Of a stretch of DNA of 39,293 nucleotides, positions 9,537 through 39,257 are shown in pieces. Each line of letters begins with the position of its first letter. The stretch's first letter is position 1. The stretch covers positions 79,080 through 118,372 of the forward strand of contig CAYXDV010000004.1 in assembly GCA_964463925.1 (NCBI GenBank), given 5' to 3'. The translations under genes were made by a program, and so were the position numbers. This DNA is from an uncultured Gammaproteobacteria bacterium (GTDB lineage: Bacteria; Patescibacteriota; Microgenomatia; UBA12405). The notes under the pieces are model-generated. The model had not been told where the DNA came from, ran no database searches, and saw only the letters and a list, made by a program, of their open reading frames with translations.

Positions 9537-11543
9537 ATGCAAAACCCATTTGACAAGAATTCGTCACCAGAAGATATTATTTCCACTCCTAAACTAAGCT
9601 CAATTTTTGACAAATCAACAAACAAGCCAACTATCCCCGTCAAAAAAACATCAAAGCTCAAAACTTTCTTTAAAATCGCATCTTTATCTCTTTTGGTTTT
9701 ACTACTGTTAACGAGCGTGGCTGGTTTTTACCTCTATCAAGAGGCATATAAACCATATCAAGAATTCTCACAAAAATTACAGCAAACCTTGGCACTTCAA
9801 CCAAAGGTAAAAGAAGCTATTGCCAGTAAGGATTTAAACAAGATTAAACTCCAGTTAGAAGAATTAAAACAAGCCAAAGAATCTCTTCAAACTTCTTATC
9901 AAAAGTTTTCCAAATTCAGCAAGCTTCCAAAAATTAAAGACTATTATCAAGACGGAGAAGAAGCCTTTAATATTGCCGACCAATCTTTTGATGCATCCAA
10001 CATAATCTTAACTGCGATTGCTCCTTACCAAGACTTTCTTGGATTAACCGGAGGTCTGGCTAGTAAAAAAACAGAAACTGCAGAAGACAGAATTGCTTTT
10101 TTGACTCAATCAGTCGAAGGTATTGTTCCTTATTTTGATCAACTGGAAACCAAATTATCCAATATTGAAACATCTTTAAATAAAATAGATGCGACTCGTT
10201 ATCCCGAAGAATTTAAAGGCCTAAAAATACAATCTAATTTATTACAAGTAAAACAAGAAGTAGCCCAGATTCATCAGTTTTTACAGGAGGGAAAGCCAAT
10301 TCTAACCAAAACATCATGGTTACTTGGAAAAGACAAGCCTAGAACTTATCTGCTTCTTTTCCAAAACGATGCTGAGCTGAGACCGACAGGTGGTTTCTGG
10401 ACTGCTTATGGTACTCTAAAAGTTGATAAGGGCAAAATCACTCCAATTTCTTCCAGCAATATTTACGATCTAGACACAAAGTTCAACAGCACCATACCAG
10501 CTCCAAGACCTATTAAAAGCTATCACATTAATGTGCCATATTGGTATGTCCGTGATATGAATCTATCACCTGACTTTCCAACTAGTGTGAAAAACTTTAT
10601 AGATGCCTACAATAAAGTCTACAAGAACGACCCCTTTGATGCTGTTGTTGCAATCACCACAAAACCTGTAGTTGATTTAATCAAAGTTATTGGGAGAGTT
10701 GGAGTTCCAGGTTGGGGTAACTTTACTCCAGATCCAGACAAACGCTGTGACGGCTGTCCAAATGTTTTATACCAAATGCTATGGCTAGCTGGTAAACCCA
10801 GAAACTATGTTGATAATGATAGAAAAGGATTCTTGGGCCCTCTAATGCACTCAATCCTGGCTAATGCCATGGGATCGCCTAAAGAAAAAATGGGGCCTCT
10901 AATGTCAGCCATGCTTGAAAATGTGAATCAGAAAAACATTTTGATGTATTTTAAGGATCCAGAAATGCAAAAGGCTGCAGAGCTTGCCAATATCGCTGGC
11001 ACGGTTACTCAAACAACAAACAATACTGATTACATAATGTTGGTTGATGCAAATATGAGTAGTGCTAAGACTAATTTATTCCTAACTCAAAAAATTAGAC
11101 ATGAAATTATTAGTCAGAATGGTCAAGTTCAACACAAAATAACAATAACTTATACTAATCCATCAAAAGCTAGTAATTGCAATTTGGAAAAAGGGGATAT
11201 TTGTCTGAATGCTCCAAAGTATCGTGATTGGTTCAGATTTTATGTACCCACCAACTCCAAATTAGATAAAATGACTGGTTCCGAAGTTGATCCACTAACA
11301 TACGAGGAAAGCGGAAAAACTGTTTTTGAAGGTTTTTATGGCAATAAGTATCCGCTTTACGCCCAAAGTAGCACTAAAACTAGCATACAATATACTAGTA
11401 CAGTTCCAGCCTCCAAAGACTATACTTTGTTGATTCAAAAGCAGCCAGGTGCCAAAGCTGCCGAATATCAATTGGTGGTCAACGGCGAAGACTATGATAC
11501 TTTTATGCTTACGGCCGATAAAACCATCAAACTGGCCTTGTGA
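9537..11543 (+). CDS. DUF4012-family membrane-anchored protein
   Basis: Single TM helix, long coiled region, then YLLLFQNDAELRPTGGF and RDMNLSPDFPTS, which I recognise as DUF4012-like. These proteins often sit at glycan loci. Confidence 0.75.
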   Translation: MQNPFDKNSSPEDIISTPKLSSIFDKSTNKPTIPVKKTSKLKTFFKIASLSLLVLLLLTSVAGFYLYQEAYKPYQEFSQKLQQTLALQPKVKEAIASKDLNKIKLQLEELKQAKESLQTSYQKFSKFSKLPKIKDYYQDGEEAFNIADQSFDASNIILTAIAPYQDFLGLTGGLASKKTETAEDRIAFLTQSVEGIVPYFDQLETKLSNIETSLNKIDATRYPEEFKGLKIQSNLLQVKQEVAQIHQFLQEGKPILTKTSWLLGKDKPRTYLLLFQNDAELRPTGGFWTAYGTLKVDKGKITPISSSNIYDLDTKFNSTIPAPRPIKSYHINVPYWYVRDMNLSPDFPTSVKNFIDAYNKVYKNDPFDAVVAITTKPVVDLIKVIGRVGVPGWGNFTPDPDKRCDGCPNVLYQMLWLAGKPRNYVDNDRKGFLGPLMHSILANAMGSPKEKMGPLMSAMLENVNQKNILMYFKDPEMQKAAELANIAGTVTQTTNNTDYIMLVDANMSSAKTNLFLTQKIRHEIISQNGQVQHKITITYTNPSKASNCNLEKGDICLNAPKYRDWFRFYVPTNSKLDKMTGSEVDPLTYEESGKTVFEGFYGNKYPLYAQSSTKTSIQYTSTVPASKDYTLLIQKQPGAKAAEYQLVVNGEDYDTFMLTADKTIKLAL

Positions 11544-12094
11544 TAGTAAATGACAAAGCCATAGTTTTAAGCTTAAAAAAGACGGCTGAATTGGATTTAA
11601 ATATTTCGTTATATTGCCTTAAATTAGGAAAAATCTACGCAAAAGCAAAAGGAGCATCAAAAATTACTAGTAGTAGATTAAGTACTTTACAGGCAGGAAA
11701 TACTATCCAAGTTTATATTTATGAAAAAAATTCGATTCATTGGATCTCTCAAACAAAATCAATATCTAGCTTTTTAACAAAAAGCAAAAGCTTGACTCAG
11801 GTGAATTTATTATTCTATTTATTGGAATTCTGTCATCGAATTATTCCAGCATCCCAAGCGAATAATTTAGTGTTTTCTCAGATCGAAGAAGCCATTCAGG
11901 CAATCGATAACAACCAGATTGGTAAATTTATCCAAAAGGAAATCAATATTGTTAATCTACTTGGCTACGGTACCCCAAGTTCAGTTAGTCAGGCAGTTAC
12001 AAATCGTGATGCAAAGCAGGCTCATCATCTACTTAAAAATTATATTGAGTCAATATTGGAACGTCCTCTTGAAAGCCAAAAGTTATTTAGTTAA
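11540..12094 (+). CDS. recO: DNA repair protein RecO
   Basis: N-terminal AIVL...GKIYAKAKGASKITSSR OB-fold pattern, 184 aa, GTG start. Sits upstream of glycyl-tRNA synthetase, a common synteny. Confidence 0.75.
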   Translation: MIVNDKAIVLSLKKTAELDLNISLYCLKLGKIYAKAKGASKITSSRLSTLQAGNTIQVYIYEKNSIHWISQTKSISSFLTKSKSLTQVNLLFYLLEFCHRIIPASQANNLVFSQIEEAIQAIDNNQIGKFIQKEINIVNLLGYGTPSSVSQAVTNRDAKQAHHLLKNYIESILERPLESQKLFS

Positions 12095-12111
12095 TTATCA
12101 AAAATTAACTA

Positions 12112-12141
12112 TTGTCCAACATTGGCTGCTTAGTTTATAAT
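12112..12141 (+). promoter_or_regulatory. Sigma70-type promoter for the T-box/glyQS transcript
   Basis: TTGTCC (12112-12117), 18 nt, TATAAT (12136-12141), ending 7 nt before Stem I of the T-box. Confidence 0.65.
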
Positions 12142-12148
12142 TCTATGC

Positions 12149-12248
12149 TACGGCTATGACAGAGTTGGCATCCTCGAGCTGTAAAAACAAGTGGTTTATT
12201 GCTTAAGCAGTAAACAATTAGGGTGGAACCATCCGATATTCGGATCCC
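12149..12248 (+). ncRNA. Glycine T-box riboswitch leader (minimal architecture)
   Basis: Stem I: TACGGC/GCTGTA, K-turn-like TATGA/GA, GAG/CTC closing a loop containing GGC-A. Stem III: GTTTATTGC-TTAA-GCAGTAAAC. T-box motif AATTAGGGTGGAACC. Antiterminator: GGG-TGGAACC-ATCCG-ATATT-CGGAT-CCC. Directly upstream of glyQS. Confidence 0.85.
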
Positions 12249-12274
12249 TTTATTAATAATTATTAATAAAAATT

Positions 12275-13591
12275 ATGGTTCAAAATCAAGAAGACAAAGT
12301 TTCCAAAATAGTTTCGCTGTGCAAACGCAGAGGTATCATTTTTCAAAATTCTGAAATATATGGGGGAGTTCAAGGATTTTACGATTATGGTCCCATAGGC
12401 TCTCTGATGAAATACAACTGGAAGAATTTATGGTGGAAGGATAATGTTATAAAGCGCAGAGATGTTGTTGGAATCGACGGGACAATTATTACTCACCCAA
12501 AAGTTTGGGAAGCCTCAGGACATGTAAAGAACTTTGGCGATGAGCTAGTAGAATGCAAATCCTGTCATCAACGTTTCCGACCTGATTTAATAAATTTTGC
12601 CAAAGAATGCCCAGAATGTGGAGGCGAATTCACAAATCCAAAGAAATTCAATATTTTATTTCACACCGAAATAGGTGTAATTGAGGGTGAAAAAATTCCT
12701 GCCTATCTTCGCGGAGAAGCTTGCCAAACTATATATCTAGATTTCAAAAATATCATTGATTCTTGCCGTGTCAAAATACCTTTTGGCATTGCCCAGATCG
12801 GCAAAGCCTTTCGTAATGAAATTACACCAAAAAACTTTCTTTATCGTACTCGCGAATTTGAACAATGGGACGTGCAATATTTTGTTCACCCGTCAGAAAT
12901 GGATAAGTGGTACGAATATTGGAAAGAAAATCGAATGTCTTGGTACCAAAATTTATTTAACGATAAAAATAGTCTACGTTTTAGACAGCATGCTCAAGAT
13001 GAACTTGCATTTTATGCCCAAAAGGCGTTTGATATTGAATATAATGCCCCTTGGGGTTGGGCAGAAATGGAGGGTATTCATTGGCGCTCGGACTACGATT
13101 TATCCCAGCATTCAAAATTTAGTGGTCAGGATCTAGCTTACAAAGACCCATTAACTCAAGAAAAATACCTACCATGGATTGTGGAAACTTCAGGCGGAGT
13201 TGATAGGGGGTTCTTTTTTCTATTGCTAGATGCATATCGGGAAGATAAATTGGAAAACGGAGAAATTCGTACTTGGTTGCAAATAAATCCAAAGCTTTCC
13301 GCCTACAAATTAGCAATCTTCCCACTAGCCAGCAATAAGCCAGAGCTAATAAGCAAATCAGAAGAAATTTATAGTCAGCTAGCTGATAAATATTCAGTAG
13401 ATTATGATGATAGCAGTAGTATAGGGAAAAAATATCGACGACAAGACGAAATAGGGACGCCCTGGTGTTTGGTAGTTGATTATCAAACTCTTGAAGACAA
13501 CACTGTTTCCATCCGTGATCGCGACACCATGGAACAAATCCGTATAAAAGCTGGAGAGGTTGACGGTTGGTTATCCAATAAGCTAAAGTAA
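12275..13591 (+). CDS. glyQS: Glycine--tRNA ligase, alpha2 (eukaryote/archaea-like) class II type
   Basis: LCKRRG..FQNSEIYGG, YLRGEACQ, GKAFRNEITP, RTREFEQ, ELAFYA, ETSGGVDR, and anticodon-binding IGKKYRRQDEIGTP. Confidence 0.95.
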   Translation: MVQNQEDKVSKIVSLCKRRGIIFQNSEIYGGVQGFYDYGPIGSLMKYNWKNLWWKDNVIKRRDVVGIDGTIITHPKVWEASGHVKNFGDELVECKSCHQRFRPDLINFAKECPECGGEFTNPKKFNILFHTEIGVIEGEKIPAYLRGEACQTIYLDFKNIIDSCRVKIPFGIAQIGKAFRNEITPKNFLYRTREFEQWDVQYFVHPSEMDKWYEYWKENRMSWYQNLFNDKNSLRFRQHAQDELAFYAQKAFDIEYNAPWGWAEMEGIHWRSDYDLSQHSKFSGQDLAYKDPLTQEKYLPWIVETSGGVDRGFFFLLLDAYREDKLENGEIRTWLQINPKLSAYKLAIFPLASNKPELISKSEEIYSQLADKYSVDYDDSSSIGKKYRRQDEIGTPWCLVVDYQTLEDNTVSIRDRDTMEQIRIKAGEVDGWLSNKLK

Positions 13592-22156: not shown

Positions 22157-24937
22157 ATGTATTTCCCAGATCTTCCATCACAACCAGATTTTTCTAAATT
22201 AGAAAACCGAATTTTAGAGTGGTGGTACAAACAAGGAATAGATAAACAGTATTTAAAAAGAAACATCAATTCAGAAAAGACTTTTTCATTTATTGATGGA
22301 CCAATTACAGCCAATGGGTCAATGGGTGTTCACCACGCTCGAGGTAGAACATTAAAAGATGTTTTTCAACGTTTCAAAAATTCAAGTGGCTACTCTCAAA
22401 GATTTCAAAATGGGTTTGATTGCCAAGGTTTATGGGTTGAAGTTGAAGTCGAAAAAGAACAAGGATTTAACTCAAAAAAAGATATCCAAAATTTTGGACT
22501 TGAAAATTTTACAAAATCTTGCCTGGCACGCGTAGAAAAGTTTAGTCATATACAAACTGAACAGTCTAAACGACTGGGAATGTTTATGGACTGGGACAAT
22601 TCATACTATACCAACTCTCAAAGCAATAATCTTTACATTTGGCATTTTTTGAAACTAGTCTGGCAAAAAGGGTGGTTGGTTAAACGCAAATCTGCCACGA
22701 CCTGGTGTCCTCGTTGTGAAACTGGGCTTTCACAACATGAAGAAGCTGATGGCTATAAAGAAATTCAGGACCAGTCAGTATATTTAAAATTCAGGCTTAG
22801 TTCCAAATCAAACGAATATTTACTTGCCTGGACAACCACTCCGTGGACTTTACCAGCAAATGTCTTGCTGGCAATCAATACCAAACATCAATACGTCAAA
22901 GTAAGGCACAATAATGAAATTTTATATCTTGCCGAAGAATCAGCAAAAAGACTCGGTTTCAGTGAATACGAGTTGATTGATGCAAATATGTTTTTAGACC
23001 AACCATACGATTCCTTATACAATATTCCAGCGCAACATCAAATAAAACATTATATTACCCAATGGGACGAAGTTGATCCAAGTGAGGGGACTGGAATTGT
23101 ACATATTGCACCTGGATGTGGCCAAGAAGACTATATCTTAGGCAAAAAATTAAAATCTGATATGCCTTCTCCACTTGACGAAAGTGGACATTTCATAGAA
23201 GGTTATGCAAATTTAACTGGATCTTATGCCCATAACGTAGCTCCAGAAATTTTCAAATATCTAGAATCGATAAATTCGTTATTTAAAATTGAACCAATTA
23301 CACACCGCTACCCACATTGTTGGCGTTGTAAGACTAAATGCTTATTTCGTCTAGAAGACAGTTGGTACATCAGCTCAGACAAGATTAGGCCCCACATGAA
23401 GGCTGCTGCTCAAAGAGTAAATTGGCATCCAAAGTATGTAGGGCGTCGCATGCAAAATTGGCTGGATTCTATGGAAGATTGGATGATAAGTCGAAAAAGA
23501 TTTTATGGACTTGCCCTTCCATTTTATGAATGTGAGTGTAATGAATTAACGGTGATTGGTAGCAAAGAAGAATTAAAGTCCCAAGCAATTAACCCAGAAC
23601 TAGTAGATACCCTACCATCACTTCACCGACCTTGGATTGATCAAATAGTTATCAAATGTCCCCATTGTGGCAAAAAAGTTTCTCGAGTGTCTGATGTTGG
23701 AGATTGCTGGCTAGATGCAGGTGTTGTGCCATTCTCAACTTTAAAGTATTTAGAAGACAGAGCTTATTGGGAAAAATGGTTTCCAGCAGATCTTGTACTT
23801 GAGATGATTGAGCAAGTCAGGCTCTGGTTTTACTCAATGCTTTTTTTCAGTGTTACTTTCGAAAACACTTATCCTTATAAAAACGTAGTAGCCCACGCTG
23901 AAGTCAGAGATGAAAAAGGCGAAAAAATGAGTAAAACCAAAAAAAATGGCATAGCTTTCGACGATGCTATAAACCAAATGGGCGCCGATGCTATGCGCTG
24001 GCTATATTGCCAACAAAAACCACACACAAATGTCAATTTTGGCTACAACATTGCCAATCAGGTTAAACGTGGATTTTTCTTAACTTTATGGAATTCCTAT
24101 CGCTTTTTCACTCAGCATGCCAATCTTGAGTCTTGGAGTCCAAAGGATGGTGATACTTTGGACACAAAAAATATATTAGATAGTTGGATATTGTCTCGAT
24201 TAACTTCTACTATTGTGCAAACAGAACATTATCTTAATAAGTTCAACACTTCTAAGACTACTGAAACTATAGAATTATTTATCAATGATTTATCTACTTG
24301 GTACATACGTCGAAGTCGAGATCGCAACGATAATATGGCTATTTTGTACTATATATTTCACACATTATCCAAATTGTTAGCACCCTTTGTCCCATTTTTG
24401 TCCGAAGAAATATATCAAAATCTACAAGGGCTTGATATAGAAAAAAGCACCACATCAGTCCACACTCAATCTTGGCCAGTTGCAGACAAAAAATTCATCA
24501 ATTCTGATTTAGAAACACAAATGGAAATAGCCAGAAAAATTTGTCAGGCCATTCACTTTCAAAGGCAACAGTCAAATATGCCAATTAGACAGCCACTTGC
24601 TAAAGCAACTATCAATTGCCCCGCCACACTTTCCAATGAAATCATAAATATAATCCAAGAGGAAACTAACATAAAAAATATCAAACTCATTAAACAAGGT
24701 TCCGAAGTAGAGGCAATTTTGGATACTAAATTAACGGAAGAGTTGCTTGCAGAAGGGGAGTACAGAACTTTATTGCGCAGTATTCAAAGTCTACGTAGAG
24801 ATCGAGGTCTTCTACTCACTGACCGAATTAAAATAACTGCTCCATCATGGCCAAAGACCTTTGAAGATCAGCTTCTAAAAAAAACCTTAGCAAATAGTAT
24901 CACTCAGGGAAATATCTTGTCCATTCAGGTCGAATAG
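22157..24937 (+). CDS. ileS: Isoleucine--tRNA ligase, type 2-like, with GVHH signature
   Basis: DGPITANGSMGVHH, GFDCQGLWVE, WTTTPWTLPAN, GTGIVHIAP, DWMISRKR, KMSKT, WYIRRSR. Confidence 0.95.
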   Translation: MYFPDLPSQPDFSKLENRILEWWYKQGIDKQYLKRNINSEKTFSFIDGPITANGSMGVHHARGRTLKDVFQRFKNSSGYSQRFQNGFDCQGLWVEVEVEKEQGFNSKKDIQNFGLENFTKSCLARVEKFSHIQTEQSKRLGMFMDWDNSYYTNSQSNNLYIWHFLKLVWQKGWLVKRKSATTWCPRCETGLSQHEEADGYKEIQDQSVYLKFRLSSKSNEYLLAWTTTPWTLPANVLLAINTKHQYVKVRHNNEILYLAEESAKRLGFSEYELIDANMFLDQPYDSLYNIPAQHQIKHYITQWDEVDPSEGTGIVHIAPGCGQEDYILGKKLKSDMPSPLDESGHFIEGYANLTGSYAHNVAPEIFKYLESINSLFKIEPITHRYPHCWRCKTKCLFRLEDSWYISSDKIRPHMKAAAQRVNWHPKYVGRRMQNWLDSMEDWMISRKRFYGLALPFYECECNELTVIGSKEELKSQAINPELVDTLPSLHRPWIDQIVIKCPHCGKKVSRVSDVGDCWLDAGVVPFSTLKYLEDRAYWEKWFPADLVLEMIEQVRLWFYSMLFFSVTFENTYPYKNVVAHAEVRDEKGEKMSKTKKNGIAFDDAINQMGADAMRWLYCQQKPHTNVNFGYNIANQVKRGFFLTLWNSYRFFTQHANLESWSPKDGDTLDTKNILDSWILSRLTSTIVQTEHYLNKFNTSKTTETIELFINDLSTWYIRRSRDRNDNMAILYYIFHTLSKLLAPFVPFLSEEIYQNLQGLDIEKSTTSVHTQSWPVADKKFINSDLETQMEIARKICQAIHFQRQQSNMPIRQPLAKATINCPATLSNEIINIIQEETNIKNIKLIKQGSEVEAILDTKLTEELLAEGEYRTLLRSIQSLRRDRGLLLTDRIKITAPSWPKTFEDQLLKKTLANSITQGNILSIQVE

Positions 24938-37664: not shown

Positions 37665-39257
37665 ATGGCTACAACAAAACAAGCAGCTGCTTATCTCCGC
37701 GTTAGTACAGACGGACAAGATACTCGGTCACAAAGAAGCAAAATTGAAGAATATGCACAAGCCAATAACTACATTGTAGAAAAATGGTTTGTTGACGAGG
37801 CACTTTCTGGAACACTAGACGATAGGCCAGCTTTACTAGAACTTAAGGAATGGGTCCCAAATAATACAGGCAAGTCAATCCTTATGGTCGGTATCGATAG
37901 ATTGGCTCGAGACTTTACTATTTATGCCGATTTTTCAAAATTATTTCTCGATCATCAAGTTGATGCCGTATATCTTAATTGTCCAAAAATAGGGGAGCCG
38001 AGCATTGATACTTTACTTCAAAACATCCTTGCAGCCTTCGCCGCATATGAAAAAGATGTTATAAGAGACCGACTAAACCGGGGAAAACTATTCAAAATTA
38101 AAAACGGAATAATATCTGCAGGAGGTCCATCATTATTTGGCTACAAATTCCGAACTATTATCCATTCCACAGGTAAAAAAGACAAATTTTACGAAATAAA
38201 TGAACCAGAAGCAGAAATAGTCAGAATAATTTTTAACATGTTATTGTCAGGCAGATACAAAACACAAACCATCGGAAGAGAGTTGACGCGCATTAAAACA
38301 CTAAATAGGTCAGGAACCTGTAGGTGGCCATCAACTAGTATAAGGAGCCTGTTAACTAATACCACTTATATGGGGGAATATCGATATGGAAAGACAAAAA
38401 TGTCAGGAACAGGAAAAAACAGAAAAGAAATACCAAGAGCAATAGAAGAACAAATTAAGGTTAAGGTTCCGGCTATTATCAACCCCAAAGATTTTGAAAA
38501 AGCACAAGTCATTCTTGCTAAACTAGCCAGAGGTGATGGTGGTAGAACTAGTAAAAAACACTCCTATCTGCTTTCTGGATTGATAAAATGTGGCAAATGT
38601 ACTCATTGTTATTCGGGTTACAAAAGAGATTCAAAGAAAATAAAAGATAAATGGTTTTATTATCGATGCAACTCAATAAATAAGTACAACGCCGAAGGAA
38701 AACATGTATCTTGTGGCAATCATTCAATTGGTGGAAATATGGCTGAATCAGCAATTTGGAATGTACTAGTTGAGATATTAACCGACCCTAAAAAAATCCA
38801 TGAAAAACCAGAAAAAAAGAAGAATGAAGAGAGACGCATGGAATTAGCTGGAGAATATGTGGCTGTCAACAAACAGTTAAATGGTTTTGATGAGGAAGAA
38901 AACAGGATAATGAAAGCCTTTGGTAAAGGCCTTTTTACAGAGGAACAAGTGATTAGATATAAAAAGGAACTAAATGATGAAATGATTCTGCTTAACCAGA
39001 AAAGAAAAGAACTAATAGATCAGATGTACATTTACTCAATGGAATTTGCACAGTTAGAACTTGATCCTGTTCCAACAAAAGAAGAACTGCAAAACTATTC
39101 ATACGAAAACAAAGGTTATATGATTCAAAAATACATTTCAGAAATACGAGTCCTTCCCACCAATCCTCAGCAATTAGAGATCACTTTTAACCTGCCAGTT
39201 AAACCAAAGACTGTTATTGTAACAAGTTCCAACTCGCCCCTAAACCAGGAAGAATAA
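37665..39257 (+). CDS. Large serine recombinase (integrase)
   Basis: YLRVS (catalytic Ser14), DRLAR, recombinase domain, zinc ribbon LLSGLIKCGKC...YYRC...SC, coiled coil. The ORF runs across the right junction. Confidence 0.95.
   Translation: MATTKQAAAYLRVSTDGQDTRSQRSKIEEYAQANNYIVEKWFVDEALSGTLDDRPALLELKEWVPNNTGKSILMVGIDRLARDFTIYADFSKLFLDHQVDAVYLNCPKIGEPSIDTLLQNILAAFAAYEKDVIRDRLNRGKLFKIKNGIISAGGPSLFGYKFRTIIHSTGKKDKFYEINEPEAEIVRIIFNMLLSGRYKTQTIGRELTRIKTLNRSGTCRWPSTSIRSLLTNTTYMGEYRYGKTKMSGTGKNRKEIPRAIEEQIKVKVPAIINPKDFEKAQVILAKLARGDGGRTSKKHSYLLSGLIKCGKCTHCYSGYKRDSKKIKDKWFYYRCNSINKYNAEGKHVSCGNHSIGGNMAESAIWNVLVEILTDPKKIHEKPEKKKNEERRMELAGEYVAVNKQLNGFDEEENRIMKAFGKGLFTEEQVIRYKKELNDEMILLNQKRKELIDQMYIYSMEFAQLELDPVPTKEELQNYSYENKGYMIQKYISEIRVLPTNPQQLEITFNLPVKPKTVIVTSSNSPLNQEE

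Follow-up and report, generated by a model that had tools for sequence, protein, structure and literature searches.

Expression of glyS, the gene for glycine--tRNA ligase, in a bacterium of the Shapirobacteria appears to be governed by a glycine-specific T-box riboswitch of minimal build, most likely through the control of translation initiation, a reading to which we give a probability of roughly 0.7. The element lies in the leader of glyS within a 39,293-nt stretch of DNA (GCA_964463925.1, contig CAYXDV010000004.1, 79,080-118,372, forward strand; the whole stretch is hereafter called the window, and positions count from its first nucleotide). The host genome belongs to the Microgenomates group (Shapirobacteria) of the Candidate Phyla Radiation (CPR) and is that of an ultra-small bacterium. 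What is new about this leader is that it lacks both the platform with which other T-boxes grip the tRNA elbow and Stem II; the T-box family itself is known. An earlier reading of the same DNA from its letters alone (the original prediction) had proposed a glycine T-box whose Stem I is ultrashort and which has no Stem II, and we find this layout kept, with covarying helices, in 11 other leaders.

The sensor of the glyS leader

A gap of 180 nt separates a recO-like gene (11540-12094) from glyS, and the parts of the leader sit inside it (Table 1). The position of the promoter puts the predicted transcript start at about 12147-12149, which is the foot of Stem I. With only 7 nt between the end of the promoter and the first base of Stem I, a long Stem I would not fit; one drawn from 12095-12148 was ruled out, as this segment is where the promoter lies, the covarying 5' strand adjoins the loop, and the relatives described below have their -10 box immediately upstream.

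Stem I opens with a basal helix of 6 bp, including one G-U pair, in which UACGGC (12149-12154) is paired with GCUGUA (12178-12183), and passes through an asymmetric loop of the kink-turn (K-turn) type, with UAU-GA (12155-12159) facing GA (12176-12177), into an upper helix of 2-4 bp. The register of this upper helix is ambiguous. The GAG/CTC pairing originally proposed stands as one possible register, whereas the homologues and the covariance model favour A12161-U12174 and G12162-C12173, with an A-C mismatch coming next; in every register the GGC specifier stays in an end loop of 6-8 nt. No Stem II is present in the leader because the 10-nt linker that follows Stem I cannot hold one. The last five nucleotides of the linker, AAGUG (12189-12193), constitute the RRRNG purine motif that has been described ahead of Stem III (PMC7778990, citing Li et al. 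2019), and AA (12216-12217) stands directly 3' of Stem III. The T-box helix is then made up of A1, in which AGGG (12220-12223) pairs with CCCU (12246-12249), and A2, in which AUCCGA (12231-12236) pairs with UCGGAU (12240-12245) across a UAU loop. Between the two lies the 7-nt bulge UGGAACC (12224-12230), whose UGGA is the presumed pairing site for the 3'-NCCA of the tRNA. Set against the conserved T-box sequence AGGGUGGNACCGCG, the window's AGGGUGGAACCAUC matches at 11 of 14 positions.

Much of this had been foreseen: the Stem I of about 35 nt, its K-turn-like motif and the GGC-A in the terminal loop are all present in the sequence, as are the short A-rich linker, the 9-bp Stem III and the 7-nt bulge. 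The element had been placed at 12149-12248, of which the start is right, and the true end is 12249.

Table 1. Features of the glyS leader and its surroundings (window coordinates)
Feature	Position	Strand	Basis
Promoter, sigma-70-type: TTGTCC (12112-12117), 18-nt spacer, TATAAT (12136-12141)	12112-12141	+	consensus scan, 10/12 matches
Stem I, ultrashort, 35 nt: basal helix, K-turn-type loop, short upper helix, terminal loop	12149-12183	+	covariation, covariance model, RNAalifold
Specifier GGC (glycine codon, 12167-12169) and A12170 in terminal loop UUGGCA(U)	12167-12170	+	sequence
Linker AAAACAAGUG, 10 nt, A-rich; no Stem II, no Stem IIA/B	12184-12193	+	sequence
Stem III, GUUUAUUGC with GCAGUAAAC, 9 bp (12194-12202 with 12207-12215), loop UUAA	12194-12215	+	covariation
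T-box discriminator helix, AGGG[UGGAACC]AUCCGA-UAU-UCGGAUCCCU	12220-12249	+	Rfam alignment, covariance model
GAACC at the 3' side of the bulge, predicted to form the 5' strand of the OFF helix; overlaps G and A of UGGA	12226-12230	+	folding only
A/U-only hairpin UUUAUUAAU-AAUU-AUUAAUAAA between T-box helix and start codon	12249-12270	+	folding
Start codon AUG (12275-12277) and GGUUC (12277-12281), predicted 3' strand of the OFF helix	12275-12281	+	folding
glyS, alpha2-type (single-chain) glycine--tRNA ligase, 438 aa, regulated gene	12275-13591	+	Pfam; NF003211, 558 bits; TIGR00389 glyS_dimeric, 459 bits

Conservation and covariation in related leaders

GlyRS protein scans, one genome and one metagenome, gave 160 loci (numbered here with the prefix L), among which those with 67-86% GlyRS identity are termed Shapirobacteria-type. 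These include 11 further distinct leaders with the same layout (L002, L004, L005, L009, L011, L014, L016, L021, L082, L086 and L117), which together with the window make up the 12 leaders compared below in a hand-curated alignment. The GGC is identical in all 12; it is followed by A in 10 and by U in two, and the base preceding it is U in 10. Likewise invariant are the AAG-G motif, the AA and the GGUGGxACC...CxCU of the T-box helix. A -10-like hexamer (TATAAT, TAAAAT, TACAAT, TAAACT or TAACAT) stands 6-13 nt before Stem I in 12/12 leaders.

The helices are held together by compensatory change. Standard pairs occupy 98.7% of the cells, and 26 of the 32 pairs show compensatory changes, with all five helices covarying: 5/6 pairs in basal Stem I, 4/5 in upper Stem I, 9/9 in Stem III and 7/8 in the A2 helix of the T-box, A1 being conserved. 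None of 500 shuffles reached the observed pairing values (0/500), and sliding the partners by 1-3 columns made the pairing fall to 38-51%. When supplied with a model-made alignment, RNAalifold predicted all five helices unaided, with compensatory changes in 23 of 26 pairs. MAFFT followed by RNAalifold on the raw leaders missed Stem I through register shifts of 1-2 nt, and the hand and model-based alignments were used instead. There is some latitude in the parts: the K-turn signature is kept in 10 of the 12 leaders, including L086, where UA replaces the 3'-side GA, and gives way to a continuous helix in L009 and to a degenerate one in L021; the linker measures 9-20 nt in the relatives; and the bulge of L014 reads UGGG.

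Two further features were seen among these leaders. In five relatives the loop of Stem III is enlarged (L002:1410-1425, L016:1394-1410, L082:901-914, L117:639-651 and L005:1413-1424, the last with AUUGGAU) and carries a conserved AACUGGAAU-like motif containing a second UGGA, the same tetranucleotide as in the bulge; this second UGGA is absent from the Stem III loop of the window. In addition, L011 has a 21-nt insertion inside the A2 helix (L011:1433-1453) with a small hairpin of its own, CGUUU-CGUGC-AAACG, which is reminiscent of the stem Sa insertion in the glyS T-boxes of staphylococci.

Assignment to the T-box family

At its gathering threshold Rfam gives no match at the leader. The search against RF00230 suggested with the original prediction succeeded in part: in E-value mode Stem III and the T-box helix (GGGUGGUACC...CCCU) align meaningfully, with an E-value of 1.4e-6 for the 281 nt searched, and the score of 35.4 bits stays below the threshold of 93. 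The 'Stem I/II' portion of that alignment falls in recO and the promoter and is meaningless. Scores of 34-50 bits, below 93 as well, were obtained for the Shapirobacteria leaders with the same Rfam model. A covariance model (R2) built from the 11 relatives, with the window left out, has its sole match in the 39-kb window at 12149-12249, which is full length and scores 72.1 bits with an E-value of 3.7e-14; this score is in the middle of the range of the members. Further, the specifier matches the amino acid of the regulated gene, with GGC-A standing ahead of glycine--tRNA ligase. The N of the bulge is A, as it is also in Clostridial glyS T-boxes, and would fit a tRNA with U73, which is usual in bacterial tRNA-Gly. 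ARAGORN, run on the window and on 54 related loci, turned up no gene for tRNA-Gly.

Judged by these sequence-level features, the leader is a genuine T-box: the features of the sensor that mark the broad family are all present, and only the score stays under the Rfam threshold. By the same features it belongs to neither of the described sub-architectures, the Firmicute glyQS-type and the actinobacterial class II, from each of which it is set apart by one defining domain.

Comparison with described T-boxes

The glycine T-boxes of the Bacillota (glyQS/glyQ/glyS of B. subtilis, Geobacillus kaustophilus and Oceanobacillus iheyensis; RF00230) share with the Shapirobacteria leaders a GGN specifier followed by a purine, a K-turn at the base of Stem I, the lack of a Stem II, a flexible linker, the succession RRRNG-Stem III-AA, the UGGA bulge and a glycyl-tRNA synthetase as the target. 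However, their Stem I measures about 85-90 nt as against 35 nt here, and the window leader has no counterpart of its AG bulge and distal loop, which form the interdigitated T-loops stacked on the tRNA elbow. Their specifier is housed in an internal S-turn loop rather than in a terminal hairpin loop, and the intrinsic terminator of the Firmicute glyQS-type is not present here, the output in the Shapirobacteria being apparently a sequestrator of the Shine-Dalgarno (SD) sequence or the AUG. The contrast with the Firmicutes drawn in the original prediction was reproduced with the same tools, which recovered canonical long-Stem-I glycyl T-boxes from Clostridia: the glyS leaders L045, L075, L071, L038 and L058 have a full Stem I, a length of 175-184 nt and RF00230 scores of 74-105 bits, and carry AGUA, AGAGA, the distal GGUGNAA loop and GAA-GGN-A. 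Full-length matches of the minimal model in Clostridia were rejected as further minimal T-boxes, since Rfam shows canonical 175-184-nt leaders at these places; the minimal model there places its own Stem I, wrongly, on the descending strand of the long canonical one.

The translational ileS T-boxes of actinobacteria (Mycobacterium tuberculosis, M. smegmatis; TBDB class II), on the other hand, resemble the Shapirobacteria leaders in having a short Stem I without an elbow platform and a canonical discriminator domain, and probably in their translational control by a sequestrator and antisequestrator. Sherwood et al. are said to have reported such leaders from actinobacteria in 2015, with an intermediate or ultrashort Stem I. 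They differ in their Stem II with an S-turn and in their Stem IIA/B pseudoknot, neither of which exists here, where the linker is 10 nt; in their AUC specifier, as against GGC; in the phylum of their hosts; and in that the window has no SD sequence to sequester.

A third point of comparison is furnished by a metagenome contig whose GlyRS is 46% identical (L150:797-940). Its Stem I is truly minimal, AGC-AAU-GA-C-GGA[ACUGGCAA]CUCC-U-GA-GC, a K-turn stem with an apical ACUGGCAA loop, and the locus agrees with the Shapirobacteria leaders in lacking Stem II, in its canonical discriminator, in its location upstream of glyS and in falling short of the Rfam threshold. In contrast to those leaders, which have no terminator and whose T-box 3' strand pairs with AGG or AUG, it carries an intrinsic terminator (CCCUGUGC...GCACAG followed by U8) along with a strong Shine-Dalgarno sequence. 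As this terminator is of the classical kind, the same minimal sensor exists with a transcriptional output.

In the published accounts, glycine T-boxes have no Stem II or IIA/B since the GGC:GCC pairing is strong, and use the elbow contact of a long Stem I, while the translational ileS T-boxes offset their intermediate or ultrashort Stem I with Stem II and IIA/B, the integrity of which is essential (PMC7583486, PMC11297988, PMC11404447, PMC12990946). One of these accounts holds that GGC:GCC is strong enough without Stem II and that translational switches manage without fast capture of the elbow (PMC7583486). Our literature search turned up no account of a T-box that has neither the elbow platform nor Stem II, none of T-boxes in Patescibacteria/CPR and nothing relevant on minimal translational glycine variants. 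The earlier suggestion of a possibly undescribed class in a CPR-like genome agrees with this search and with the Shapirobacteria affinity of the genome.

The expression platform

All 11 relatives lack a terminator in the form of a GC-rich hairpin with a U-run. Rather, the 3' strand of their T-box helix, often along with the end of A2, can pair alternatively with a downstream segment. In nine relatives this segment holds a Shine-Dalgarno-like AGG 4-10 nt before the start codon (region -14 to -4), an example being CCCUAAAAAUUA/UAAUUUUUAAGG, and the sequences of the sequestrator vary by lineage (CCUAUAAAAU/AUUUUAUAGG, CCCUAGAGAU/AUUUUUAGGG and CCUAAAUUAUA/UAUAAUUUAGG). L011 and L014 are without an AGG, and in them the T-box 3' strand pairs directly with the start codon (UCGUCU/AGAUGA and UACGU/ACGUA, respectively). 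This alternative pairing can be read from the relatives' sequences, and from it we infer a regulatory role. Given that the relatives' T-box 3' strand pairs with AGG or the start codon and that there is no terminator, control is probably exerted on translation initiation, and the helix bearing the UGGA bulge, which had been correctly recognized but called an antiterminator, is probably an antisequestrator.

The window leader has no AGG or other Shine-Dalgarno sequence before its AUG, which rules out for it a model based on an SD sequestrator. The place of the relatives' sequestrator hairpin is occupied by the A/U hairpin, which is without the CC:GG base and does not include the CCC. SD-like motifs precede 3 of the 34 window open reading frames (ORFs) of at least 120 aa and 2 of 38 ORFs in leaderless relatives, and the neighbours of glyS in T-box loci are mostly without one. 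The genome of the window thus appears from its sequence to start translation largely without Shine-Dalgarno pairing. Several operon-first genes of the window (e.g. at 37665, 14958 and 16297) have a -10-like hexamer at most 16 nt from the ATG.

For the 3' domain of the window, the predicted minimum-energy fold is a three-way junction closed by pairing of GAACC in the bulge with GGUUC at the start of glyS. This OFF fold has a predicted energy of -14.5 kcal/mol, as against -11.9 kcal/mol when the T-box helix is forced, so that it is favoured by 2.6 kcal/mol, similar to the OFF-ON gap of 1.3-2.4 kcal/mol in L002, L004, L086 and L117. The unpaired probability of GGUUC in the window goes from 0.02 in the free RNA to 0.97 with the T-box helix enforced and the bulge kept free; in 12/12 leaders that of the sequestered element goes from 0.00-0.43 in the free RNA to 0.38-0.97 in the ON-state mimic. 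The modelling makes a window-specific GAACC:GGUUC OFF helix suggestive, not established.

Sequences of the region are found in four wastewater metatranscriptome runs (2024; X1-X4), which hold 100%-identical contigs of low depth over 11900-12900. One of these contigs (12206-12644) joins the leader to the glyS coding region, which points to read-through RNA, and others span the 3' end of recO into the leader; none of them gives a transcript end. Public runs thus contain expression data for the CPR host.

Proposed mechanism and its alternatives

In the mechanism that we favour, the transcript would begin at the foot of the 35-nt Stem I, which would offer GGC-A, in an end loop like that of an anticodon arm, to the GCC anticodon of tRNA-Gly. 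The 10-nt linker would lead on to the canonical discriminator, where the UGGA bulge would pair with the free 3'-NCCA of an uncharged tRNA. Since the distal T-loop platform and Stem II/IIA-B are absent, the tRNA would be held by its anticodon and 3'-end contacts alone. In the OFF state of the window, folding predicts a pairing between the GAACC of the bulge and the GGUUC that occupies +3 to +7 of glyS; on the same prediction, the start site would be in competition with uncharged tRNA for the same nucleotides of the bulge.

Several observations count against this proposal. Accessibility over the whole -14 to +6 region changes modestly between the two predicted states. The GAACC:GGUUC helix is only 5 bp long and was chosen after the fold had been seen; shuffles of the downstream sequence match its behaviour in about 1-10% of trials, a figure that varies with the null model and measure used, and there is no close T-box-bearing relative in which it could be tested by covariation. 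The metatranscriptome contigs are shallow and might stem from carry-over of DNA. The nearest relative of the window by GlyRS (L001/L081, 85-86% identity) is leaderless and has no T-box. Finally, the alignment behind the main pair count was fitted to the structure by hand, but the slid controls and RNAalifold give a concordant picture.

A more specific form of the proposal is that these leaders are natural two-contact translational T-boxes and that, in the window, G12226 and A12227 pair either with the tRNA's 3' end or with GGUUC, there being no separate anti-anti element. We advance it tentatively, as a possibility with clearly less than even odds.

Alternatively, the same sensor might work by transcription attenuation, with the A2 hairpin AUCCGAUAUUCGGAU (12231-12245) and the following CCCUUUAUUAAU as a weak intrinsic terminator. 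It is the only terminator-like site that a consensus scan flags in 11900-12500 (1 vs 0.4 expected), and the minimal-Stem-I glycine T-box of L150 clearly does use an intrinsic terminator. Yet this hairpin is weak, with 6 bp of which 3 are G-C, and has three C residues between it and the U-rich tract (CCCUUUAUU), whose U-richness is that of one strand of the A/U hairpin. Moreover, the hairpin is present in both the ON and OFF folds and does not compete with the T-box helix, so that tRNA binding would not remove it. With a terminator in 0/11 relatives and one RNA contig crossing the candidate site, we regard attenuation as unlikely and retain translation initiation as the probable point of control.

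Distribution among Shapirobacteria-type loci

Of 46 distinct Shapirobacteria-type loci, 11 have T-box leaders, and these lie scattered over the GlyRS tree, where 8 gains or losses of the T-box are needed, at least two of them forced by well-supported branches. In most of the remaining loci TATAAT is followed by ATG 6-7 nt on, pointing to a leaderless glyS mRNA, often in the same recO-glyS synteny. On sequence grounds this scatter fits repeated loss of an ancestral riboswitch. Loci of the leaderless type are L001, L003, L006, L007, L010, L012, L013, L015, L017-L020, L022, L023, L026 and many of L081-L124. Nine loci of TPA metagenome-assembled genomes with GlyRS 68-81% identical (L002, L003, L004, L008, L010, L011, L018, L022 and L026) are labelled 'uncultured Gammaproteobacteria bacterium'; they are plainly Shapirobacteria-like in their GlyRS, recO synteny and leaders, and the labels look wrong.

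This scattered pattern, in which the T-box was gained or lost at least twice and probably about 8 times, provides the chief argument for the view that the window holds a decaying T-box, in which the sensor is still recognizable, the expression platform has degenerated with the loss of the CC:GG base of the sequestrator, and glyS is no longer regulated. It is joined by the replacement of the leader with the promoter TATAAT-N6-7-ATG in most relatives, the closest included, and by the absence from the window of the AGG partner found in nine relatives. However, the helices have all remained intact in this AT-rich genome, as have the GGC, the RRRNG and AA motifs and the bulge with its UGGA, and the score of the window against the model of its relatives is mid-range for a member. 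The window also offers another predicted OFF helix, whose energy gap is comparable, and L011 and L014, likewise without an SD, sequester the AUG directly. We therefore consider decay improbable and a working glycine T-box the better account of the leader.

Chance resemblance, or an RNA element of another kind such as a structure of the recO 3' untranslated region, has in its favour the Rfam score far under the gathering threshold, but is effectively refuted by the conservation and covariation across the 12 leaders and the leave-one-out E-value, and also sits ill with the invariant glycine codon ahead of a glycine tRNA ligase gene and with the promoter that separates recO from the element.

Implications

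Structural accounts have it that a T-box needs either the distal platform of Stem I, for stacking on the tRNA elbow, or Stem II and IIA/B, which buttress the codon-anticodon helix. The Shapirobacteria leaders would be a natural case in which both features are dispensed with, as published reasoning hints (PMC7583486). With their length of about 100 nt they provide a minimal system in which to ask how little RNA is enough to read the identity and charging of a tRNA, as well as a compact scaffold for engineered tRNA sensors. At 34-50 bits such leaders have probably been overlooked, which suggests that CPR T-boxes are systematically missed. The leaderless promoter that takes the place of the riboswitch in scattered sister lineages is a clear example of how regulation is lost in reduced genomes. 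If tRNA and the initiation site indeed compete directly for the T-box bulge, the switch would have been reduced further in a genome poor in SD sequences.

Another aminoacyl-tRNA synthetase gene of the window is ileS, for isoleucine--tRNA ligase, at 22157-24937 on the forward strand (TIGR00392, 684 bits). While ileS is the classical target of T-boxes with a short Stem I, that of the window is without a T-box, its ATATAAT being followed by a leader of only about 15 nt.

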